Origin: a virus
Virus record (IMG/VR): IMGVR_UViG_3300029105_000372
Reading direction: 5' to 3' (one strand)
Length of the DNA stretch: 64,000 bases
A program made the translations under genes and the position numbers. Shown piece after piece: positions 26,025 through 62,469 of this stretch (within the stretch, counting starts at the first letter, position 1; each line of letters begins with the position of its first letter). The notes below the pieces were generated by a model that saw only the letters and a program-made list of their open reading frames with translations, was not told where the DNA came from and made no database searches.

Positions 26025-27476
26025 CTATTCGACTGTGATGCAATCATATCTCTCAGAATTGATTGTATTCTCCATAGCCTCAACCGGATTGTAGCCAAGG
26101 TTCTGCAGGATCTGTTTGAATACCGTCACGGACTGTCCGCTTGCAAGCTGCACACCCTTACGGTTGTGATCTGCATGGAATACATCGTGTCTGCTATTCA
26201 CATTCCAAAAGATGATGTTCGGGATTACATAACCGGCCTTGCAGAACTTATTTGCCATCTTGTCATAGAACGACCACTCACGGTTTCCGCAATAGTCAAT
26301 TTCCATATCAGAGATAACAACGATTGCTTTCGGCATTTCCTCCTGCGGAGTATTATGCTTTTTCGCAATTTCAAGAACCCTCTCAAAAGCAGCTTTAAGG
26401 TCTGTGTTGCCATCCCAATTTGCTCTGCTCACGTTGCAAATCTTCTGTTCAAGGGTTTCTCCCCTCAGAATAACCGTCTCCGGTCTGTCAGAGAACGTCA
26501 TAAACAGATTGTGGTATGCACCCACATTTCTCTCTGCAAAATAGATTGCAAGACCGATTGATGTTGCCATAGGTCTGCCTCTCATAGAACCGGACACATC
26601 CGCCATAACTAAAGCGTTTGTTCCTTTCTCCACATAATCTGGCAATGCTTTCCACTGTGCTTCGAGTACCTTACTGCTCTCTCTGCCATAAAGGATCTTC
26701 TCAACAATATCGTAAGGGAACAGTGTTGAAGCATTGATTTTTACCTCTCCCTTTTCTGCCTTGTTGATAAACTCTCCAAACCTCTCAGCATCATGTTTCA
26801 TAAATGCCTTGCGGTAAATCATCATCGCACGGCTCGGAACTTCCGGGTATTTGATTTCATCCCATCTTCCGGCTGACATAAGACTTTCAACGACACCGAT
26901 CTGTTTTCTCATGCTACGGACGATTCTCTTGAAATTGTAGACCGGATAGCCTAATTTCTGCGCCGTAAGGATTCCGAGTTTTCTTGTGGCAGAGCTGCTT
27001 GCATCTGCGGTCTTAATCCATTTTGCAAGTAAAGAAATTGCATTTCCGGCATTGAGGTTCTGTAAATCTTCCTCAAACTGTTTCTTCATTGCCGCCCACA
27101 TATCGTCCTCCAATGGAGTTCCGATAAGCTCATACAGATCATCATATCTTCCGAATACACCAACCAGATCAAGGTTTGGTCTGAGTGCTTCTGGGTGTTT
27201 CTCTGCCATATAACGAATAATGGTTCTGAAAGTCTTTCTCTCTCCAAGACCGCCACGAATGTCTCTTGCATAGAACGCAATCTTTGTAGCAAAGAGTTTA
27301 TCCTGTGCGTATGCCTCAGCAAACAGAGTGGTAATTCTGTTCTCATCAGCCTCTCTCAGCGATCCGATTGTACCAAACAGATCCAGTCGGGCATCGCCAG
27401 AGGTATTCAGTGCCACTGCACCGTTTTCAGTCCGGGTAAATCTACCCTCTTCTCTCATTGCATCTGCAAAACTCAT
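26025..27476 (-). CDS. large vWA-domain protein (483 aa; phage DUF2828-like, possibly Ro60-related vWA)
   Basis: MIDAS motif LVMADVSGSMRGRP followed by a long alpha/beta region. This architecture is common in phage genomes. Family assignment is from memory only. Confidence 0.5.
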   Translation of the reverse strand: MSFADAMREEGRFTRTENGAVALNTSGDARLDLFGTIGSLREADENRITTLFAEAYAQDKLFATKIAFYARDIRGGLGERKTFRTIIRYMAEKHPEALRPNLDLVGVFGRYDDLYELIGTPLEDDMWAAMKKQFEEDLQNLNAGNAISLLAKWIKTADASSSATRKLGILTAQKLGYPVYNFKRIVRSMRKQIGVVESLMSAGRWDEIKYPEVPSRAMMIYRKAFMKHDAERFGEFINKAEKGEVKINASTLFPYDIVEKILYGRESSKVLEAQWKALPDYVEKGTNALVMADVSGSMRGRPMATSIGLAIYFAERNVGAYHNLFMTFSDRPETVILRGETLEQKICNVSRANWDGNTDLKAAFERVLEIAKKHNTPQEEMPKAIVVISDMEIDYCGNREWSFYDKMANKFCKAGYVIPNIIFWNVNSRHDVFHADHNRKGVQLASGQSVTVFKQILQNLGYNPVEAMENTINSERYDCITVE

Positions 27477-28110: not shown

Positions 28111-28237
28111 AGACGATGAGAGGAATCGAACCTCTATCCGCAGCTTGGGATTGTTATTGAAAGGAGTTTGCTGATTATGCCACTAACATGACATTCTTCT
28201 TAACAGAGCTGCTGTGCTCCCTTTGCACCACATCGCC
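28111..28237 (-). ncRNA. tRNA-like gene with ~56-nt insertion in the anticodon loop (127 nt)
   Basis: Acceptor GGCGATG/CATCGTC (one G.U pair), D arm GTGC-AAAGGGA-GCAC, anticodon stem GCAGC...GCTGC enclosing 63 nt, variable GGAT, T arm AGAGG-TTCGATT-CCTCT. Confidence 0.55.
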
Positions 28238-28360: not shown

Positions 28361-28425
28361 CATGTAATTGGCGCATCTTCTTGATTTGTAAGGACATTTG
28401 CGCCATCGCCTTGATTGGAGAGGGT

Positions 28426-28532
28426 AGGATTTGAACCTACACTACATTTGCCTCTTTGGGTGTATTTGCAACATTATTAAAATGATACGTTTTCACAATA
28501 CAAATTGCGTCTGCCAGTTCCGCTACCTCTCC
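28426..28532 (-). ncRNA. tRNA-like gene (Leu-type D arm) with expanded anticodon region (107 nt)
   Basis: Acceptor GGAGAGG/CCTCTCC (7/7), D arm GCG-GAACTGGCAGA-CGC, anticodon stem ATTTG...CAAAT enclosing 32-50 nt, T arm GTAGG-TTCAAAT-CCTAC. Confidence 0.55.
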
Positions 28533-28565: not shown

Positions 28566-28684
28566 TTGCGTGGGAGGGAATCGAACCCTCATCTCTTCAT
28601 TTCCAGTGAAAAAAGAATAGTTGCTGTCCGTGCCACATGGAACATGACACCGCTTTAATGTTCTATCCATTGAACTACCACGCA
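28566..28684 (-). ncRNA. tRNA-like gene with ~43-nt insertion between D and T arms (119 nt)
   Basis: Acceptor TGCGTGG/CCACGCA (7/7), U8-A9, D arm GTTC-AATGGATA-GAAC, 65 nt with no canonical anticodon arm, T arm GAGGG-TTCGATT-CCCTC. Confidence 0.55.
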
Positions 28685-30117: not shown

Positions 30118-30526
30118 ATGCAGTCCGGCGGCAGCTTGGATGGTTGCCACTACCGAACCGATGCAACGTGTAAGACAGTTGCCAACAAAGGTATTTCATT
30201 TTTTAATGTGGTTCTCGGACCTTGCACCCCTCCACATGGTTCTCATAATCCACCGACTACATACTCAAAGAACCTTTGACGAGTCCAACTCTTTATCGCC
30301 TTACCTCGGATGTACGTTGTTATCGCAGTTCTCCGCCTCTACTACATTCCTCTGCGTTTTGATAGATTTTTTTGTGTAGTTACGGCTCTATCTGCCTTTC
30401 TACTCATGGTTTTCATCTTGAAAATACTCATGCCAAAAGTCACTTAGTGATCACCGGAACCTCGCCACCGCCAATTTTCTTTCCTGTTAAAGCCGGACTA
30501 AGAAAATCAGTTAAGAAATCCGCTCG

Positions 30527-30599
30527 TCCTACGGTGGGGAGTCGAACCCCACTTTCCCCGGCATGGTGTCCGTGGCATTTCCAGTTATGCTATCGTAGG
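30527..30599 (-). ncRNA. tRNA-like gene of canonical length (73 nt) with unpairable anticodon stem (pseudo-tRNA?)
   Basis: Acceptor CCTACGA/CCGTAGG, D arm GCAT-AACTGGAA-ATGC, T arm TGGGG-TTCGACT-CCCCA. The 17-nt anticodon region ACGGACACCATGCCGGG does not form a 5-bp stem. Confidence 0.4.
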
Positions 30600-38528: not shown

Positions 38529-39146
38529 TTATCCATGACAGCCCACCGCCTTTAACATACTGATTTTCTCTACCAGAACATCAACCGTTGCGTTGAGCTT
38601 GCTGTTCTTAATGCAAACTTCCTGATAATCCTCATATAATTTTCCACCATTCAGCATTTCAGTCTGTTCCTTGACTGTGGCATCCAGCTCTGCATTGAAA
38701 CTTTCAAGCTGTTCAATCTGTTTCCTCAGATTATCATTCTCTTTTTCTACTTTCGCATTTCTTTCTTCCAGAGATTTCTTGTTTGCTTTCAGTTTTTCAA
38801 CCTCGCTCGTAAGTTCTCCGAGTTTCTTTATCATTTCCTGCTCAGACATGGTTCCCTTTTCCTCCGTCTCTTCTACTCCGAGAAGTACCTTAATCTGTTT
38901 CTTTGAAACGTGATATGTCATTGCAAGGGCGGCTATGGATTCCCCGGAAGAATACTTTTGCTCAATCTCTGTTTTCTTCACGGAAATATCCACACCATTC
39001 GTATTGAACATACGCTTGTAACCGCCCTCTTCCAGAATTTCTACTATTGTCTGCGTGTCGCACACATTCAAGTCCGCAAGAATGGGTATCTGTCTCTTAT
39101 GGTTCTTCGCCAAGCGGTAATCCATTAAGATTTGTCCCTTATCCAT
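38529..39146 (-). CDS. HTH plus coiled-coil protein (205 aa)
   Basis: N-terminal DNA-binding-like region and a C-terminal heptad-rich segment (EKLKANKKSLEERNAKVEKENDNLRKQIEQLE). Confidence 0.35.
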   Translation of the reverse strand: MDKGQILMDYRLAKNHKRQIPILADLNVCDTQTIVEILEEGGYKRMFNTNGVDISVKKTEIEQKYSSGESIAALAMTYHVSKKQIKVLLGVEETEEKGTMSEQEMIKKLGELTSEVEKLKANKKSLEERNAKVEKENDNLRKQIEQLESFNAELDATVKEQTEMLNGGKLYEDYQEVCIKNSKLNATVDVLVEKISMLKAVGCHG

Positions 39147-39759
39147 TCTTACCTCCCTGTTTTACCCCCCCCACGGAGAAAAAGTCCTCATATATCGCTT
39201 TGATAACTTCCGCATCGTAGAGTGCATTGTGTTTTTGACCTTTCGGCAAATCAATTCCTCTGTTTGTAAGGAGCTGTTCTCTCGAAATGTCAAAAGCTGC
39301 CTTTTCTGAAATATCAAGCATCGTTGCAATGTCCTGATTGATGTCGTGACAAGCCGGTGTAATAAACTCAGGCAACTTCATAGCGTTTCCTGCCAATAAG
39401 TCAATCAGTAACACCATATCGTAATGCGAGACATCTGAAACGAATACCGCAGCATAATCACTGTCAAAATTAGCGTCCATTTCAAGCCATTCCATAAGTT
39501 CGCAACAAACATCTGCCTTACTGCCGATTACAGTCGTTGTTTTATTGTCGGCTGCCAGGCTTTCTTCTAACTCCGCATTGCCACTCAAAACCAAATGATC
39601 GAGAACATTCTTCTCAATCCATTCATCACACATACCCTCATCATAGTCCGTCAACTCTGCATAGAACCTATCTCCTGTGTCTGAGACAATTCCTATGCTG
39701 ATAAGAGTTGTGTCCTTACGCAGACCAGTAAACTCTGTGTCAAAAAAATAGGTTCTCAT
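39139..39759 (-). CDS. DEDD-family 3'-5' exonuclease (DnaQ-like; 206 aa)
   Basis: Exo I motif FFDTEFTGL and Exo III-like HNALYDAEVIKAIYEDF. A G8 tract (39175-39182) lies in its last codons. Confidence 0.6.
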   Translation of the reverse strand: MRTYFFDTEFTGLRKDTTLISIGIVSDTGDRFYAELTDYDEGMCDEWIEKNVLDHLVLSGNAELEESLAADNKTTTVIGSKADVCCELMEWLEMDANFDSDYAAVFVSDVSHYDMVLLIDLLAGNAMKLPEFITPACHDINQDIATMLDISEKAAFDISREQLLTNRGIDLPKGQKHNALYDAEVIKAIYEDFFSVGGVKQGGKNG

Positions 39760-41279: not shown

Positions 41280-41288
41280 ACATACCCC

Positions 41289-41552
41289 CTACGCCTCTAT
41301 CAGTGTGAATACACGCCTATATACATCCTTGTCCGGCAGAAGCGACAGCCTATTCAGTGTTGTACCTCCAAGATACACGTTAAATGTGCAATCCCCTATG
41401 GTTAATGTTCCTATGCTGCCCGGATCGTTCAGATCCACTTGTACGCTATTGTGCTTGTTTAATATCGCCCGTATGGTCCTGCATACTTCCTCATTTTCTT
41501 TTTCTGATGCAAGGCAATCAAAACACGGATTTTTATTCTTTGATGATCTCAT
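41289..41552 (-). CDS. hypothetical protein (87 aa)
   Basis: Intact ORF. Confidence 0.3.
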   Translation of the reverse strand: MRSSKNKNPCFDCLASEKENEEVCRTIRAILNKHNSVQVDLNDPGSIGTLTIGDCTFNVYLGGTTLNRLSLLPDKDVYRRVFTLIEA

Positions 41553-49290: not shown

Positions 49291-50577
49291 GTGTACTACC
49301 GGCATCCGGTAAAGAAAGGATTGAGAACCATGAGAAAGAAAAGCGTATTTATTAACTGTATGGAGGCATTGACCGCAAACAGAAAACACAGCGAGGCCCG
49401 CACACTTCTCAATGCAGGACTGAAAGAGTCCGCAGAGAGGCAGACCGCTGCCACCGCTCCGGCGTATGAACTTACAAAGCCGTATATCTTCCCTGCCGTT
49501 GATGGCAATATGACTTATCACACCTCATGGGGATCTCATGGAGTAAAGAACGAAGCCGAAACCATATTGAGTGTATTGAACTCTTTCCGCCTCCGCTCCA
49601 CCCTTGCAAAAATCAATCAAGGACCACGCCTTACACAGTATGTTATTGAACCGGCTCCCGGAACTCAGGTGCAAGCCATTTTGAGACGTGAAAAGGAATT
49701 TCAGGCAGCCTTGCACTGCAACGCCTCTTTGAGATTTGATAATGGTTATGTATATATTGAGGTTCCTACCGGTACAGAAACCGTGTTCCTGGGGGATATG
49801 CTTATTGATAATGAGTTTCAGTCCTCCGATGGGTTCACAATGGCGATCGGTATGGCGGTTGACGGTTCCAAACATTACATTGATATTGCCAAGGCTTGCC
49901 ATATCCTCATTTCTGGTATGACCGGATCTGGTAAATCAATCGTTCTGCATAACCTCATCTTGTCTCTATTGATGAAAAAGAATCCGGCACAGATGCACTT
50001 ATATATCATTGACCCAAAAGCAACAGAGTTTGAGTATTACAAGAACCTTGCAGCGTGTACGGTTGTATCTGAGGTAAATGGTGCGGTTGAACTATTGAAG
50101 AACCTTTGTATTGAGATGGATCGCCGCTACTCCATTCTTGCCTCTACCGGCTGCCGTGACATTGACAGCTACAATACAAAGTTCGCAGATGCTCCTATGA
50201 GGCGTGACATAGTTTTCATTGATGAGTTATCCGACCTTATGAGCATGGGTGGAAAATCCGTTGAGGGACATATTGTAAGAATTGCACAGAAAGCCCGTGC
50301 CTGTGGCATCCACCTTGTAATCGCTACACAGTACCCGGTTGCAAAGGTTGTTACTGGATTGATTAAGGCAAATATGCCTACAAAGATCTGTCTCCGTGTT
50401 GGTACAGTCACAAACTCTATGGTTGCATTGGATATGGCCGGCGGCGAAAAGCTCATGGGACATGGCGATATGCTCTTTCTCCCTAACGGTTCTCTTTCCC
50501 CGGTAAGGTTGCAAGGTGGGTTTGTATCTGAGACGGCAATCAACAATGTCGTTGCCGGTTTGATGAAAAATCAGTAA
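49291..50577 (+). CDS. FtsK/SpoIIIE-family DNA translocase ATPase (428 aa)
   Basis: Walker A ILISGMTGSGKS, Walker B IVFIDELSDLM, and HLVIATQYP. Confidence 0.75.
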   Translation: MYYRHPVKKGLRTMRKKSVFINCMEALTANRKHSEARTLLNAGLKESAERQTAATAPAYELTKPYIFPAVDGNMTYHTSWGSHGVKNEAETILSVLNSFRLRSTLAKINQGPRLTQYVIEPAPGTQVQAILRREKEFQAALHCNASLRFDNGYVYIEVPTGTETVFLGDMLIDNEFQSSDGFTMAIGMAVDGSKHYIDIAKACHILISGMTGSGKSIVLHNLILSLLMKKNPAQMHLYIIDPKATEFEYYKNLAACTVVSEVNGAVELLKNLCIEMDRRYSILASTGCRDIDSYNTKFADAPMRRDIVFIDELSDLMSMGGKSVEGHIVRIAQKARACGIHLVIATQYPVAKVVTGLIKANMPTKICLRVGTVTNSMVALDMAGGEKLMGHGDMLFLPNGSLSPVRLQGGFVSETAINNVVAGLMKNQ

Positions 50578-50585
50578 GTAGGAGG

Positions 50586-51182
50586 ATGGTTAGAATGGCA
50601 GGAAAGACAACAACAGCTTGTACGCATGAACAGTACGAGACTATCATAAAAACTTTATATGAGGGCATTGGAGACTGCATACAGCCTAATCCCAGGATTG
50701 CTACGATCCTCGTTATTGAGGCGAATGTAGGATTGCGTATTGGAGATACACTCTCCCTCCGGCGTTCCTCTTTTATCAAGACGCCATCCGGTCACGCTTT
50801 CAATATTGTTGAGCATAAGACCGGAAAGGTTCGCCGTTTCAAGGTCCAGGAACAGGTCTACAACTTCCTCCTTGAATATGCGGACTCTGAGGGCATTGAG
50901 GGCGATGATCTGATATTCCCTATCGGTGTCCGGGCAGTGCAAAAGCATCTGAAAAAGGTTTGCGACTGGCTCGGTCCTGAATATGAGGATATATCCACCC
51001 ATTCGTTCCGTAAATACTTCGGAACAGAGATTTACTACAAGAATGGAAAGGACATTGAACTGGTCCGCCGCCTGTATCAGCACAGTTCCGCCGCCGTTAC
51101 GGCTCGTTACTTGGGTGTTACGGACGAAAAGATTGAACAGGCATTAGATTCCCACGTTGATATTATTTACCGCCCCAAATGA
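50586..51182 (+). CDS. small tyrosine recombinase, catalytic domain only (FimB/FimE/RecV-like invertase; 198 aa)
   Basis: Catalytic R (GLRIGD), K (HKTGK), HxxR (HSFRKY), H (YQHSS) and Y (TARYL). No N-terminal core-binding domain. Confidence 0.7.
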   Translation: MVRMAGKTTTACTHEQYETIIKTLYEGIGDCIQPNPRIATILVIEANVGLRIGDTLSLRRSSFIKTPSGHAFNIVEHKTGKVRRFKVQEQVYNFLLEYADSEGIEGDDLIFPIGVRAVQKHLKKVCDWLGPEYEDISTHSFRKYFGTEIYYKNGKDIELVRRLYQHSSAAVTARYLGVTDEKIEQALDSHVDIIYRPK

Positions 51183-51457: not shown

Positions 51458-52147
51458 ATGGAGGTCTTAGGCATGATTGATATTACAAACTGCAATAAAA
51501 TCATAGTCGATACCATTGGGAAAACAGAGAAGATCATTGAATGGTATCAGCAAAATAAAGATTGGTTGGATGCCGAAGAGTTCCGCATCCCCATCCCCTC
51601 CGCATTGGTTGAGCTGCCGGAAGAAGATATTAAATTCTATTATGAGCAGGAGGGTGTATTCGTCAGGCTGCATCTGTATATGGGTGGCGTGTATGTCTGC
51701 AATTATCGGTATGATCCGAAAACTCAGGAAATCGAAAACATTGTCTTTCCTGCCGGATTAAGCAAAGAGAAACGAAAGGTTGCCCGGATGGTTCTTGCCG
51801 CTGACAGAACGCCATACAAGGAGGCATTGAAGTTCCATTCTCTCATGTGTTTTGCAACTCATTACCGCAACTGCATTGAGACTACGGAGCAGAAAGAGAA
51901 ACGCATTTCTCATAAGCATCGAAAAATCCTGCGCCGTTCCGGCGGTGCTACACCACTGATAACCACATACCGCATTGATAGCAGACCTGTTCCTGCAGAC
52001 GGTACAAAAAGGCACTACACAAAGCCTACCGAACAGGTAAGTGTGAGGGGATTTTACCGAACTACCAAAACCGGTAAACGTGTATGGGTTCGCCCTTTCA
52101 CAAAATACAATGGAAATTCTGGAAATAACAAAACATACAAAGTATAG
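51458..52147 (+). CDS. hypothetical protein with basic C-terminal region (229 aa)
   Basis: RBS GGAGGT upstream. First gene downstream of the invertible segment. Confidence 0.4.
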   Translation: MEVLGMIDITNCNKIIVDTIGKTEKIIEWYQQNKDWLDAEEFRIPIPSALVELPEEDIKFYYEQEGVFVRLHLYMGGVYVCNYRYDPKTQEIENIVFPAGLSKEKRKVARMVLAADRTPYKEALKFHSLMCFATHYRNCIETTEQKEKRISHKHRKILRRSGGATPLITTYRIDSRPVPADGTKRHYTKPTEQVSVRGFYRTTKTGKRVWVRPFTKYNGNSGNNKTYKV

Positions 52148-52157
52148 GAGGATCACT

Positions 52158-53363
52158 ATGAGTAATTTGAAAGTTTATGCAAAAACCATCGAAGATGAGG
52201 CTTTGGAACAGATTAACACTCTTCTGTCTCAGGATGCCTTTAAGGACTGTAAGGTTCGTATCATGCCGGATGTTCACGCCGGAAAGGGATGTGTCATTGG
52301 CTTTACTGCGGATCTCGGAAACAAAGTAATTCCGAACATCGTTGGCGTGGATATTGGATGCGGTATGCTCTGCGTAAGCATCGGACACGGAGAAATCGAC
52401 TTTGATAGATTGGATAAAGTCATTCGCACTTATGTTCCAAGCGGAAGAAATGTGCATGACGGCCGGCAGATCCGTTTTGATGAATTGCAGGATCTTTACT
52501 GCTACCGAGAATTGCGAGATACCAAACGCATTGAGCGTTCTATCGGCACTCTCGGCGGTGGCAATCATTTCATTGAGGTTGATGTTGCGGAGGACGGTTA
52601 TAAGTATCTGGTTATTCATACTGGCAGCCGCAATCTTGGAAAACAGGTGGCGGACTACTATCAGAACCTTGCCTATGAATTGATGTGTGGCAAGGACGAT
52701 TTGTACGAGCGTCAGAATAAGCTCATTGAGGAATACAAGGCTGCCGGAAGGAAATCCGAGATTGAGGGTGCAATAAAAGAACTGCACAAAAACTTCCGTG
52801 CCACTACTCCGAAGTTACCAAAGGATCTGTGCTACTTAGAGGGAAAGTATCGTGAACAGTATTTACATGATATGCGTATCTGCCAGAAGTTTGCATATTT
52901 CAACCGTGTGATGATCGCACAGATTATATGCAATCATATGGGATGGGGAGTCGGTGCGGAAATACCGGATTATTTTGAGTGCATCCACAATTATATCGAC
53001 CACGACTCCAACATCGTCCGTAAAGGTGCTATCTCTGCCAAGTACGGAGAAAAGGTTCTTATCCCTATCAATATGCGTGATGGGTGTATTCTCGGAACTG
53101 GCAAGGGAAATGAGGATTGGAACTGTTCTGCGCCGCATGGAGCTGGACGGCTTATGTCACGGATGAAAGCAAAGGAAACTCTAAACATGAGTGATTATTC
53201 AAACTCTATGGATGGCATCTACACTACTTCCGTATCAGAGGAAACCATAGATGAGGCACCGATGGCATACAAGCCTATTGATGAGATTGTGGAATGTATT
53301 GGAGAAACCGTTGATATTCTTGCCATTCTGAAACCTATATATAATTTCAAGGCAAGCGAATAA
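52158..53363 (+). CDS. rtcB: RtcB-family RNA 3'-phosphate/5'-OH ligase
   Basis: MPDVHAGKG, GVDIGCGM, GGGNHFIEV and CSAPHGAGR motifs. The track ORF starts at 52080, but the likely start is ATG 52158 after the RBS TAGGAGGA. Confidence 0.8.
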   Translation: MSNLKVYAKTIEDEALEQINTLLSQDAFKDCKVRIMPDVHAGKGCVIGFTADLGNKVIPNIVGVDIGCGMLCVSIGHGEIDFDRLDKVIRTYVPSGRNVHDGRQIRFDELQDLYCYRELRDTKRIERSIGTLGGGNHFIEVDVAEDGYKYLVIHTGSRNLGKQVADYYQNLAYELMCGKDDLYERQNKLIEEYKAAGRKSEIEGAIKELHKNFRATTPKLPKDLCYLEGKYREQYLHDMRICQKFAYFNRVMIAQIICNHMGWGVGAEIPDYFECIHNYIDHDSNIVRKGAISAKYGEKVLIPINMRDGCILGTGKGNEDWNCSAPHGAGRLMSRMKAKETLNMSDYSNSMDGIYTTSVSEETIDEAPMAYKPIDEIVECIGETVDILAILKPIYNFKASE

Positions 53364-57996: not shown

Positions 57997-58516
57997 GGCG
58001 AACCTTAAAATATCTAAATTTATCCTCTTCGCTCGTGCTTCTTACACTGATATACCCGTGAAAAGCATTTACCTCTTCTACTACCACCGGAAGCTCTGCA
58101 TATTCCGTCTTTAACATCCACTCACTTCCGAGAGGGTATTTATCGAATTTTGAATAGTCGATCTTTTCGTCCACATGAAACGGAAGATCGTATTTTCTTT
58201 TATCCACAGCCAAATCGTCAATATAGCAAGTGGCATACACTTTTCTTGGATTGTTACCATATTTTTCAACGTTTTCCGGCAGATTATCATTGACCGCATC
58301 GAACTCTAATCCGAATTTACTGCACCAGTCCACCGCTTCTTTCAGATGTTCTTCCACTCTGCAAGTCCAAAGGATCACTTTTGCTCCCTCTGTTCTGCGT
58401 TGAATAAGATGCTGTATCAGTTTTTTGTTCGGCGCGCCAATTCCGGGCCACTTACTTTCGCAGAGTGTTCCGTCAAAATCAACCGCATAAATCGGTACAA
58501 AACTACTCATCTCCAT
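57953..58516 (-). CDS. HAD-superfamily phosphatase (187 aa)
   Basis: DxDGT motif AVDFDGTL, plus ILWTCR and DD motifs. Confidence 0.5.
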   Translation of the reverse strand: MEMSSFVPIYAVDFDGTLCESKWPGIGAPNKKLIQHLIQRRTEGAKVILWTCRVEEHLKEAVDWCSKFGLEFDAVNDNLPENVEKYGNNPRKVYATCYIDDLAVDKRKYDLPFHVDEKIDYSKFDKYPLGSEWMLKTEYAELPVVVEEVNAFHGYISVRSTSEEDKFRYFKVRRDIEWFYDKLFPKE

Positions 58517-59204
58517 TCCTTTCCATCCCTAAATCGAATAGGGATAATTGTGCTTTTTCTCTTTCCAGTCTCGCATTTGAAACCTCGTACATCTCGGTGT
58601 CTATCTCAAACCCTACAAACCTCACGCCGTTTCTGTGATATGCAATGAGGCTTGACGCAGATCCTACATGGGTGTCAAGTACCACCCCCCCCGATAGCTT
58701 AAAAGCACCTACTAGATATTCGTACAATGCTATCGGTTTCTGGGTTGGATGGATGCGCTTCTCTGAATTTGTTCCGCCAGTGTTTGAGTATCTGAACAGT
58801 TTTGCCGGGAGATTGTAAGAAGTCCACGCAATCTCCGCTTGCGAAAAGGCATCCCACGGCTGCACCTTATCCCATACAACAAAGCACTTTGTTGGTGGCA
58901 GATTGAAATAATTTCCGCCCCATATAATCTGATTTTTCGATACGCGAAACAATTCTTTGAAGTATTCCTCCGTTGGCGGTTTGCTATCCCATTCCTTTAC
59001 CTGTCCACTCCGTTTCAATCTGCTTGCGGTGCTTTCGGCTGGATAACCGTTCTTCGTCCGGCTCTTATTGGTTCCCATCGCCATGTTCGGCGCATTGATT
59101 CCGTATGGTGGGTCTACGATTGCCACATCAAAGTATTTATCAGGGAAAAGTTTCATGCCGGCCATACAGTCCATGTTGTAGTAACCAAAATCTAATTTAT
59201 CCAC
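58503..59204 (-). CDS. DNA N6-adenine/N4-cytosine methyltransferase (DPPY; 233 aa); contains in-frame G8 tract
   Basis: Motif IV AIVDPPYG and C-terminal motif I HVGSASS. The G8 tract at 58685-58692 encodes S-G-G-V about 62 codons from the stop. Confidence 0.7.
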   Translation of the reverse strand: MDKLDFGYYNMDCMAGMKLFPDKYFDVAIVDPPYGINAPNMAMGTNKSRTKNGYPAESTASRLKRSGQVKEWDSKPPTEEYFKELFRVSKNQIIWGGNYFNLPPTKCFVVWDKVQPWDAFSQAEIAWTSYNLPAKLFRYSNTGGTNSEKRIHPTQKPIALYEYLVGAFKLSGGVVLDTHVGSASSLIAYHRNGVRFVGFEIDTEMYEVSNARLEREKAQLSLFDLGMERNGDE

Positions 59205-59861
59205 TTAATAATGCTCACTCCCTTATAACCTTTTTGAAACTCATACCACGCATACGCAACTGCACTTCCGCCTCCGGCTTTCATTTCCTCAAACATTCCA
59301 TTTTTGGCGCACAGAATACGGCTGCGTGACACATATACATATCTCGGAGGGTATTTCTTAAACAGCTCGCCTCTTGCCTTTCCCTCCAAGAACTGTAATT
59401 TAAGGAACATGAACACCTTTCTCCCGTCCGGTATGATCGTCATTGCGTGTTCAATGAACTCTTTTGCGTACTTGTACGGAGGATTGGTAAGAATATCGCC
59501 ATCCCACATTTCTGTTGTCTGCAAGAAGTCTATTCCGCCCTCTCCATACCCTCTGTCGATAAGGTCCGTACTGCGTACCTCGTACCCAAGTTCTATGAGA
59601 CGTTCTGATAAGTGTCCTTGTCCTGCAGAGCACTCCCAAATCTTATGATTCAGCTCTGCCCCCCCCCTGTAACAATGCGTCTACTGCGATAGGGTCTGTC
59701 GCATAGTAGTCGTTAATCTCTCTTTCTTTCTCTGTGTGGTTGGATGCACCAAGAGTTGTAAAAATGCTCTTGCCATTTCCGGTCCAATCTTTTCCCATTT
59801 CTGATCTCCTTATAAATATCCAAATCTGTAACCATATATGGATTCTAGTTCTCCGCGGCAT
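59192..59861 (-). pseudogene. Dam-family (PF05869-like) N6-adenine MTase split by a G9 homopolymer frameshift (apparently phase-OFF)
   Basis: The upstream frame (59643..59861) encodes ...YYATDPIAVDALLQGGG then stops. The frame one G shorter is open from the tract through IWECSAGQGHLSERL...DGDILTNPPY (ORF 59192..59524). G8 would restore a ~220-aa MTase. Confidence 0.65.
59659..59667 (-). repeat. G9 homopolymer (C9 on plus strand) in MTase gene
   Basis: Plus strand gcc ccccccc tgt. Coding-strand context is TACAGGGGGGGGGCAG. Confidence 0.9.
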
Positions 59862-61198: not shown

Positions 61199-61924
61199 TT
61201 AATCCATGCCGTCATAAAGGCTTTCAGATAATTCAACCTGTTCGTCTGTCAAATCCCTAAGTGCATTGATTATCTTCATCTTTGTTTCTTTGCATGGGAA
61301 ATATCCGTACTTTGCATATCTCAGCATCCGTTCAAAAGTGCTCATTGGAAATGGAATATCTTTATCAATTACAATCCGTTTAAGATGTAGATGTTCAAAA
61401 AACGCATCATCCATCAGGATTTTGTACTCAATGTGTGTTTCCGGTATTCCAATTTCCTCTAAGAAATGCTCATCTTCCAGAGTTTCAAACGGAAGTTCTT
61501 GTCTTTTCGCTACCGCACCAGTTTCATCCTCTACTTCCTCTTTGTAATATGCGAACTTCGTGATTGTGAAATCGAACTTATTCAGAATTTCTTCCGGTTT
61601 TCCAAATATTTTGCAACAAAGTTCAATCACAACACCTGTTTCAATGTGTTTGTATGCCTTTACATTGTCGTTTTCGTAGTGGAAATGATATTTCTCATCT
61701 CTTACATCGTCTCCGTCATATCCTGGTGTCTGACTGTCAAAATACTGTACCGCATCATCAAAATCGCTTTCATTCTCAAAGAAAATATCAAGGTCCTTTA
61801 CCTTTTCTTTATTGAATATGTTTTTGAAACATCCTCCACATATAAATCCTTTGTGACCGGTCATGTATTCATCAAGCCAATTTAACATCCAGAAGTTTTC
61901 TCTATCTCTCTTTATTAGAGCCAT
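61199..61924 (-). CDS. Pol-beta-superfamily nucleotidyltransferase (CCA-adding-enzyme-like head motif; 241 aa)
   Basis: GFICGGCFKNIFNKEKVKDLDIFFE matches the GG..x(9-13)..D.D NTase signature of class-II tRNA nucleotidyltransferases and poly(A) polymerases. Confidence 0.4.
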   Translation of the reverse strand: MALIKRDRENFWMLNWLDEYMTGHKGFICGGCFKNIFNKEKVKDLDIFFENESDFDDAVQYFDSQTPGYDGDDVRDEKYHFHYENDNVKAYKHIETGVVIELCCKIFGKPEEILNKFDFTITKFAYYKEEVEDETGAVAKRQELPFETLEDEHFLEEIGIPETHIEYKILMDDAFFEHLHLKRIVIDKDIPFPMSTFERMLRYAKYGYFPCKETKMKIINALRDLTDEQVELSESLYDGMD

Positions 61925-61932
61925 GCTTCCTC

Positions 61933-62469
61933 CTATCTCCGTGTCATTGCATCCTCGTATAACCGCTTATACACGTCCCTCTCAGCAGTTATCTTTGCAA
62001 TTTCCAACTGTGTCTCAATGTCCGGCATCTCCACCTTTTCTGCGATAGGTTCGGGTTCTTTCTCGTCTGGCTTCACTGCTTCATTTGCAGCTTCCGCCCA
62101 CTTCTTTACCAGATCATTCGATTTGATGTTAATTCCAATGCCGATACTTACTGCCAACGCTGCATCAATCTTTTTCATTTCCGCCATAGAACACTGCCCT
62201 ATGTAATCTCCAACCTTATCCTTGTTTACCGTATCAATCTGCTCACAAAGCACGGTGGACGGATATTTTGAACTGTTGATTTTAACGTGTGTCGGCAACG
62301 GTTTCTTTTCCTGGGTGGTAAGGTAAACCACTTCCAATATGGGAGCCGCATTGTTTCCAATGTCATTGCTTATAATTACCGCCGGTCTACCCCCCCCCTG
62401 TACATTTCCGCTATATTCGCTCTCATTGCGGATATAGAAGATTTCCCCTCTATAAAATTCTTTGTTCAT
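61933..62469 (-). CDS. PemK/MazF-like endoribonuclease-fold protein with C-terminal extension (178 aa); contains in-frame G9 tract
   Basis: N-terminal GEIFYIRNE...GGGRPAVIISND is the PemK/MazF/CcdB fold signature. The G9 tract at 62390-62398 encodes Q-G-G-G. Confidence 0.45.
   Translation of the reverse strand: MNKEFYRGEIFYIRNESEYSGNVQGGGRPAVIISNDIGNNAAPILEVVYLTTQEKKPLPTHVKINSSKYPSTVLCEQIDTVNKDKVGDYIGQCSMAEMKKIDAALAVSIGIGINIKSNDLVKKWAEAANEAVKPDEKEPEPIAEKVEMPDIETQLEIAKITAERDVYKRLYEDAMTRR
62390..62398 (-). repeat. G9 homopolymer in MazF-like gene
   Basis: Plus strand ctacccccccccctgt. Coding-strand context is TACAGGGGGGGGGTAG, the same TACAG9 context as 59659-59667. Confidence 0.9.

Follow-up and report, generated by a model that had tools for sequence, protein, structure and literature searches.

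Two adjacent DNA methyltransferase (MTase) genes in a viral genome each carry a long run of guanines inside the coding sequence, and in one of the two the run has a length that puts the gene out of frame. Is this second gene broken, was its sequence misread, or is it one state of a switch? The genes, here called MTase A and MTase B, lie in the IMG/VR record IMGVR_UViG_3300029105_000372, of which a stretch of 64,000 nucleotides (nt), the window, was analyzed; all genes between 56 and 63.5 kb of the window are on the minus strand. An initial annotation, made from the letters of the window, had interpreted the two runs as ON/OFF switches operated by slipped-strand mispairing, with the copy of nine guanines (G9) in the OFF state. 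Tract lengths in related phages support this interpretation, and its scope is wider than the two genes, since four such tracts are present in the window. We consider it likely, with a probability of about 0.7, that the poly-G runs are hypermutable contingency loci of a gut phage of Lachnospiraceae, and that slipped-strand switching acts on three of its accessory genes: MTase B, MTase A, and the gene for a MazF-like toxin.

Poly-G tracts and reading frames

MTase B (59192-59798, minus strand) encodes a small amino-methyltransferase with an NPPY motif, which is 201 amino acids (aa) long when in frame; in the window the gene is frameshifted (OFF). Its tract, G9 at 59659-59667 (the plus strand reads C9), occupies codons 44-47. 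The coding strand reads CAG GGG GGG GGC AGA GCT GAA TCA TAA, and the frame entering the tract from upstream ends in ...DALLQGGGRAES*, as the initial annotation had described. The same annotation had proposed that one guanine fewer restores a complete enzyme, and the repaired translation is indeed uninterrupted: G8 yields 201 aa and G11 yields 202 aa, and both products contain WECSAGQGHLS, an S-adenosylmethionine (AdoMet)-type motif, and DGDILTNPPY, the catalytic motif. With G7 or G10 the stop follows ...QGG(G)QS*. G8 and G11 are the ON lengths for this gene, and G7, G9, and G10 are OFF lengths whose stops fall 2-4 codons past the tract.

The frameshifted gene had also been drawn as extending to 59861. 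The frameshifted MTase is there; the start is not. Because the homologues begin with MGKDW and measure 201 aa, the real start is the ATG at 59798, which has AAGGAG 7 nt upstream, rather than the ATG at 59861. At its other end, the MTase B stop overlaps the GTG start of MTase A by 13 nt (59192-59204). Because of this overlap, an early stop in OFF MTase B could disrupt translational coupling, so that less MTase A is translated.

MTase A (58503-59204, minus strand), a beta-class DPPY N6/N4 DNA methyltransferase of 233 aa, is in frame (ON) in the window. The tract is G8 at 58685-58692, codons 171-173 of 233, which is 62 codons from the stop and just upstream of the AdoMet motif VLDTHVGSASS; its position agrees with the earlier description. 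Products of genes with G7, G9, or G10 are truncated at 176-180 aa, and the ON lengths are G8 and G5.

A third tract, G9 at 62390-62398 (minus strand), occupies codons 24-27 of a gene for a MazF/PemK-like toxin (61933-62469, minus strand; PF02452, E 4.4e-23). The gene is in frame (ON) here, encodes 178 aa including a 70-aa C-terminal extension, and matches phrog_1936, MazF-like growth inhibitor (E 2.6e-40). With G7, G8, G10, or G11 it would encode peptides of only 26-31 aa.

The fourth tract, G8 at 39165-39172 (minus strand), is of a different kind. It lies in a DEDDh exonuclease-like gene (39139-39759, minus strand), 11 codons from the stop, and is followed immediately by the ribosome-binding site of the downstream gene. 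In all three frames a stop is reached at most 11 codons later, and only the C-terminal tail is altered. We used this nearly frame-neutral tract as a comparator for the three switch tracts. A role as a promoter spacer was considered for it, and inspection by eye revealed no plausible -35/-10 pair.

G/C runs across the window

Exactly four C runs of at least 8 nt occur on the plus strand of the window (39165-39172, 58685-58692, 59659-59667, and 62390-62398), and on the coding strand all four read as G. Under a first-order Markov model, 0.57 such runs are expected, and four were reached in 0 of 300 simulations. Runs of intermediate length are missing. C6 and C7 runs together number zero against 10.1 expected, a result also obtained in 0 of 300 simulations, while C5 runs number 9 against 32.7 and C4 runs 79 against 134 expected. 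The window has one G6 run, and A/T runs of up to 7 nt are about as frequent as expected. Glycine is least often encoded by GGG (9.5%), and GGG-GGG encodes only 3 of the 92 Gly-Gly dicodons in intact genes. The distribution of run lengths is therefore bimodal, with general avoidance of G/C runs and retention of four long ones. A test of whether synonymous sites within the tracts are conserved covered four sites (P about 0.1); it was too weak and partly circular, and was not counted as evidence.

A shorter run was also noted. Between two small genes of the minus strand, a G5 run (41285-41289) lies in the ribosome-binding region, and two of seven matching relatives have G6 and G7 at this site. 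It may be a further, weaker variable run.

Tract length among related phages

Relatives of the MTase locus were collected as 80 viral contigs drawn from a large number of human-gut metagenomes; about 50 of these represent the same phage lineage, with 84-99% nucleotide identity over 6 kb. The flanking 18-mers served as anchors for the reading of tract lengths. The MTase B tract is G7 in 12 contigs, G8 (ON) in 24, and G9 in 15 (n = 51), which places 27 of 51 out of frame. The MTase A tract is G5 in one contig, G7 in three, G8 in 38, and G9 in eight. For the MazF-like gene, G9 (ON) was found 25 times, G8 ten times, G10 three times, and G7 once; one G13 and one interrupted in-frame variant were found in addition, for a range from G7 to G13. 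The commonest length at each of the three switch loci is the ON length. The exonuclease tract, scored in a separate set of 80 loci around that gene, varies most in length among the four (G6 in one, G7 in six, G8 in 18, G9 in 12, G10 in two, and G11 in three). Control runs in the same loci are stable. An A6 run is constant in 48 of 48 sequences, a T6 run in 43 of 44 (one change from T6 to T7), and a T7 run (39742-39748) in 48 of 48, 139 of 140 in total; every G4 or C4 run in the loci is invariant.

The comparison of near-identical phages is the most direct. With the tracts masked, seven pairs have 0 mismatches over about 2,475 flanking nt; the MTase B tract differs in three of these pairs and the MTase A tract in four. 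For example, L019 has eight guanines in MTase B and seven in MTase A, whereas L071, L072, and L078 have seven and eight, respectively; L003 and L004 differ in having five and eight guanines in MTase A. Among the 22 pairs with at most five mismatches, the tract differs in 10 for MTase B and in nine for MTase A (about 45%). Because near-identical pairs differ this often, we estimate that tract changes are at least hundreds of times commoner per site than substitutions, and near saturation. Both directions of change from the ON length are seen in near-identical backgrounds, contraction (L009 with G8, L035 with G7) as well as expansion (L018 with G8, L074 with G9).

The three switch genes vary separately. 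All eight ON/OFF combinations are present among 38 loci, and whether MTase B is ON or OFF does not depend statistically on the state of MTase A (Fisher p = 0.51). The type found in the window, with the MazF-like gene ON, MTase B OFF, and MTase A ON, is the commonest combination (13 of 38).

The variation is not confined to one source of data. It was found in every IMG/VR dataset series (Human Microbiome Project (HMP) 7000000xxx, 33000064xx-85xx, 3300029xxx, and 3300045988). Contigs from ENA and Logan, assembled with SPAdes, MEGAHIT, or the Logan pipeline, were selected solely for an identical MTase A protein. In these, the MTase B tract is G8 in six, G9 in two, and G10 in one of the nine scored, and the MazF-like tract is G9 in five, G8 in four, and G11 in one. 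The genome of a cultured isolate, Diplocloster hominis, has G8 in the MazF-like gene, G8 in MTase B, and G10 in MTase A. In a collection of 5.8 billion proteins, full-length MTase B forms clusters of 88 and 874 members, and a 153-aa C-terminal fragment forms a cluster of 620; MTase B proteins with alternative-frame N-termini are present as well. The marks of a contingency locus are found in three genes: the tract is located inside the open reading frame (ORF), and its length varies far faster than the flanking sequence.

Origin of the tracts

The tract sites were compared between closer and more distant homologues. The MTase B gene of L023 (96% identical) encodes the same protein with an interrupted tract, CAGGGTGGGGCA, and is locked ON. 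In L026 (80% identical) the site reads TGT GGT GGT GCT, and in a clade at 77-78% identity it reads GAT GGT GG(C/T). The tract-less relatives of MTase B keep the same Gly-Gly through GGT GGT, GGT GGC, or the interrupted GGGTGGGG. At the site of the MTase A tract, L023 has AAC GGA CCG GTT (AACGGACCGGTT). Because the more distant homologues encode the site without a tract, the homopolymers are a derived feature of this lineage. The interrupted variants seen at any of the four sites are all in the ON frame, which argues that the genes are functional and not decaying. The tract in the exonuclease-like gene is retained in relatives with only 65-72% protein identity (L142, L152, and L153).

Assignment of the two methyltransferases

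MTase A matches PF01555 (N6_N4_Mtase) with an E value of 1.9e-14 and 54.6 bits, above the gathering cut-off of 26.7. It also matches the DNA methyltransferase families phrog_23224 and phrog_67, and MTase_II in PADLOC (E 8.7e-34). DPPY, at residues 31-34, precedes the AdoMet motif (residues 174-184, approximately), which is the order of the beta class represented by PF01555. By sequence, MTase A is an ordinary orphan DNA amino-methyltransferase of the beta class, Type II-like.

MTase B had been labeled a Dam-family enzyme, and this label does not hold. Over its full length, the translation repaired to G8 aligns with phrog_799, "DNA methyltransferase" (E 1.6e-60). There was no Pfam-A match at E ≤ 0.01, and none in NCBIfam, PADLOC, or the PDB sequences. 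An AlphaFold (AF2) model built from 39 homologues has a predicted local distance difference test score (pLDDT) of 82.9, with disorder confined to residues 1-26. A fold search with this model returned 574 PDB matches at E ≤ 0.001; the best was the catalytic domain of M.TaqI (E 2e-8, TM-score 0.54), followed by small tRNA m6A methyltransferases (TrmM/TrmN6) and M.BseCI. The nearest viral structure models are uncharacterized proteins. In the NPPY motif, N105, P107, and Y108 are invariant in the 39 homologues, and P106 is conserved in at least 90%. The AdoMet motif precedes NPPY, a gamma-like order, where a Dam-type enzyme would have the alpha-class order and DPPY. The modeled protein has a class I Rossmann methyltransferase fold together with the NPPY catalytic motif, and MTase B is on this basis predicted to be a gamma-type NPPY amino-methyltransferase, not a member of the Dam family. 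The phage context suggests that its substrate is DNA.

No Res, HsdR, or HsdS partner is encoded beside either MTase; the flanking genes are a homing-endonuclease-like HNH gene (upstream) and a HAD-like gene.

Slippage, selection, and the alternatives

The mechanism that we propose is replication slippage. During replication, the nascent and template strands would mispair in the G run, and one G would be gained or lost at a rate far above that of point mutation. With the tract early in the ORF or ahead of an essential motif, and with both wrong frames reaching a stop within 0-5 codons, a change in length would turn the gene fully ON or OFF, and would do so reversibly. MTase B, MTase A, and the MazF-like toxin would be toggled independently, so that a population of phages or lysogens would be a mix of up to eight expression types. 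The likely benefit is bet-hedging of accessory counter-defence functions: methylated progeny would escape classical restriction in some hosts, and unmethylated progeny would escape methylation-dependent restriction, or spare the cost of methylating the chromosome of a lysogen.

Several points weigh against this reading. The counts are not entirely independent, since one HMP subject may be represented by several contigs, through re-assembly or repeat visits. As controls, the A/T runs are short (6-7 nt), and the loci offer no stable G run as long as G8-9. We infer heterogeneity within populations and reversibility within clones from differences between assemblies. The spread of MTase B lengths about equals that of the nearly frame-neutral exonuclease tract, and the OFF state of MTase B could simply be tolerated rather than selected. 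The exonuclease tract itself has no ON/OFF consequence yet is conserved at 65-72% identity, which the switch model leaves unexplained. The fold neighbors of MTase B include tRNA m6A methyltransferases besides the DNA enzymes M.TaqI and M.BseCI. No restriction partner was found beside the MTases, and no selective agent was identified.

The strongest challenge is that the G runs are real and unstable but of no use: mutational hotspots in dispensable genes, with OFF alleles that are neutral or mildly deleterious and en route to decay. That about half of the MTase B alleles (27/51) are out of frame, that their lengths scatter like those of a tract almost without frame consequence, and that the states of MTase B and MTase A are uncorrelated all speak for this account. 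We nevertheless think this account improbable. A single synonymous change would abolish a tract, yet the tracts are still there where the flanks have diverged by 2-9%, as is the exonuclease tract where protein identity has fallen to 65-72%. The genome has otherwise purged G/C runs of 5-7 nt (C6/C7, 0 against 10.1 expected). The tracts use the rarest glycine codon in tandem. Besides tract length, these genes have no disabling mutations; the interrupted variants are all in frame, and the ON length is the mode at the three switch loci. A much weaker case can be made for a technical origin, in which the window truly has G8, the extra G is a homopolymer miscall, and differences between assemblies are noise. 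Homopolymers are the classic site of indel errors, and the stable controls are shorter (A/T runs of 6-7 nt) than the tracts. However, no consensus error rate comes near 27 of 51 contigs out of frame at MTase B, and these fall into discrete classes, G7 and G9; SPAdes, MEGAHIT, and Logan assemblies and the isolate genome all show such variation, while T7, T6, and A6 are constant in 139 of 140 observations. The fragment cluster of 620 proteins also speaks against an artefact, and if one sample gave different lengths in different pipelines, this would itself point to mixed reads. Because G9 occurs in 15 of 51 viral contigs and in two of nine ENA/Logan contigs, a one-off homopolymer error is unlikely, though possible for this single window. 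Overall, we regard an artefact as very unlikely.

On long A/T homopolymers, RNA polymerase is known to slip during transcription. One may ask whether the G9 allele is still expressed, through a +1 slip of tRNA-Gly on GGG_G or through slippage of RNA polymerase, so that the tract tunes the level of the enzyme. The G run does permit perfect re-pairing of the glycine tRNA in the +1 frame, and low-level leakiness is possible. However, three tract lengths occur, which would require opposite frame corrections, and the distant homologues need none. Recoding sites usually have a conserved length, whereas no other position of the locus varies as much as the MTase B tract. No stimulatory element (stall codon, upstream Shine-Dalgarno-like element, or downstream structure) was identified, though the search for one was not systematic. 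We give recoding hardly any credence. Another candidate was a tRNA with a four-base anticodon as a frameshift suppressor for the poly-G tracts. ARAGORN calls a tRNA with anticodon ACCA at 30526-30599 (minus strand). This candidate was rejected; it would read UGGU, not GGGG. The call falls below the Rfam tRNA threshold, its fold is only slightly more stable than those of shuffled sequences (z = -1.6), and it is probably spurious or the remnant of a degenerate tRNA.

The phage, its host, and the accessory block

The window encodes a tape-measure protein, a tail protein, a portal, large and small terminase subunits, and 12 tRNA genes, as expected for a tailed phage. The tail genes (1-12.5 kb) are without a poly-G tract, and the switched genes are not receptor-binding proteins. 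A DNA search of GenBank phages with the MTase locus and with the 24-kb right arm yielded no relative, the best terminase match among these phages has no more than 47% identity, and no named phage was usable as a reference.

Diplocloster hominis CSJ-3 (Lachnospiraceae), a cultured isolate, has a 355-kb contig with a region 98.1% identical to an 8.6-kb stretch of the window. Because this region is located inside the 355-kb contig, the phage is most likely temperate, with Diplocloster as its host genus. A block on the opposite strand (49291-51182, plus) contains an FtsK/SpoIIIE-like gene followed by a short tyrosine-recombinase/integrase-like gene (198 aa). Together with the match inside the isolate contig (L081), these two genes suggest a temperate lifestyle.

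The window also encodes an RtcB tRNA-splicing ligase (52080-53363, plus strand) and a Ro-like RNA-binding protein (26025-27476). Rfam tRNA matches were obtained at 28111-28237, 28416-28532, and 28566-28684 (minus strand) that were not reported by ARAGORN. Because their spans of 117-127 nt cover the full 71-position model, these appear to be tRNA-like genes with inserts of about 50 nt, which are possible introns.

The neighborhood of the switch genes includes a gene annotated as Gad2 (a precomputed Pfam label only), radical-SAM genes, DUF5131, and the homing-endonuclease-like HNH gene; in its composition it looks like an accessory or counter-defence block. The Gad2 label (PF26128, anti-Gabija) belongs to a 241-aa ORF at 61199-61924 (minus strand) that adjoins the MazF-like gene. 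The label was not reproduced with local Pfam, where the ORF had a weak nucleotidyltransferase match (E 0.096), and it is a lead only; if it is right, the block is a counter-defence island. In the related contig L168 (ENA ERZ27295102, 773-2008), the Gad2-labeled and PemK-like genes are in reverse order compared to the window, which indicates that the accessory block has been rearranged between the two.

Comparison with known phase-variable systems

Phase-variable MTases are well known in bacterial restriction-modification systems. To our knowledge, phase variation through simple repeats is viewed as typical of a small number of host-adapted pathogens, and in phages it has been demonstrated only for the receptor-binding proteins of Campylobacter phages. 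Poly-G phase variation of the receptor-binding proteins of Campylobacter Fletchervirus was shown experimentally (Sorensen et al. 2021, Cell Rep 35:109214, as described in PMC11868660, PMC11959909, and PMC12823448). A review from the Bayliss group credits this work with demonstrating phase variation in phages (PMC11868660), and a gut-phage review from 2025 describes Fletchervirus switching as "an exceptional case" (PMC11959909). As described in these articles, the Fletchervirus tracts resemble those of the window: intragenic G runs of about 7-11 nt, several per genome, turn genes ON or OFF by frameshift and give mixed phage populations. The same descriptions also mark the differences. The Fletchervirus switches act on receptor-binding proteins of virulent phages, whose Gram-negative host itself uses poly-G phase variation, and switching was observed experimentally. 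In the window phage, two MTases and a MazF-like toxin are affected, the phage is probably temperate, the host is a Gram-positive gut anaerobe, and the evidence is comparative.

The initial annotation had likened the locus to the mod genes of phasevarions. This likeness is no more than an analogy, and a restriction partner is absent here. In the phasevarions of Haemophilus, Neisseria, Helicobacter, and Moraxella (Type III Mod and Type I systems; PMC3230613, PMC5149525), a repeat in the ORF of the MTase leads to random ON/OFF methylation across the genome, as would be the case here. The phasevarion enzymes, however, belong to chromosomal restriction-modification systems and their regulons were measured, whereas those of the window are orphan, phage-borne, and known from their sequences. 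Should the host chromosome be a substrate of the prophage enzymes, the lysogen would have a methylome that varies in phase as it does in phasevarions. In the Type IIG system cj0031 of Campylobacter jejuni (PMC4889913), an intragenic poly-G tract, as in the window, switches site-specific adenine methylation ON and OFF; cj0031 is chromosomal and a fused endonuclease-methyltransferase, whereas the MTases of the window are phage-borne orphans.

Orphan MTases of phages and prophages, such as PamA of Staphylococcus aureus (PMC12435837; overview in PMC13076061), are small, without a cognate nuclease, and located in an accessory block, as are those of the window; such enzymes serve to counter restriction or to change the phenotype of the host. 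A 2026 review of prokaryotic epigenetic regulation lists phage-encoded MTases, PamA among them, and describes none as phase-variable (PMC13076061); the MTases of the window differ from these enzymes in being gated by hypermutable repeats. Our literature searches found no report of repeat-switched phage methyltransferases. The CJIE1 prophage (PMC4004267) was considered as a precedent for homopolymer switching in a prophage and was rejected, because the tracts are in host genes.

Implications

What is familiar here is the mechanism; what is new is its carrier, a gut phage of Lachnospiraceae, and its targets, orphan MTases and a toxin. If our interpretation is correct, repeat switching would extend to the abundant Firmicutes phages of the human gut and to another class of functions, self-methylation and a toxin. 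Phages would then be able to hedge their epigenetic identity against hosts with either classical or methylation-dependent restriction, and as prophages they could impose unstable methylomes on gut commensals. Annotation pipelines will call such genes pseudogenes or split ORFs, and the cluster of 620 C-terminal fragments already exists. Methylation-based linking of hosts and phages in metagenomes would be inconsistent for phages of this type.

A broader interpretation goes further, and we advance it tentatively, giving it rather less than an even chance. A temperate phage of a Gram-positive gut commensal would run a multi-locus "phasome", in which independent poly-G switches randomly toggle genes of counter-defence and host manipulation, namely two MTases and a MazF-like RNase; in lysogens, this would amount to a mobile phasevarion and give Lachnospiraceae a phase-variable methylome. 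Each burst or lysogen population would then hold up to eight epigenetic or toxin types.

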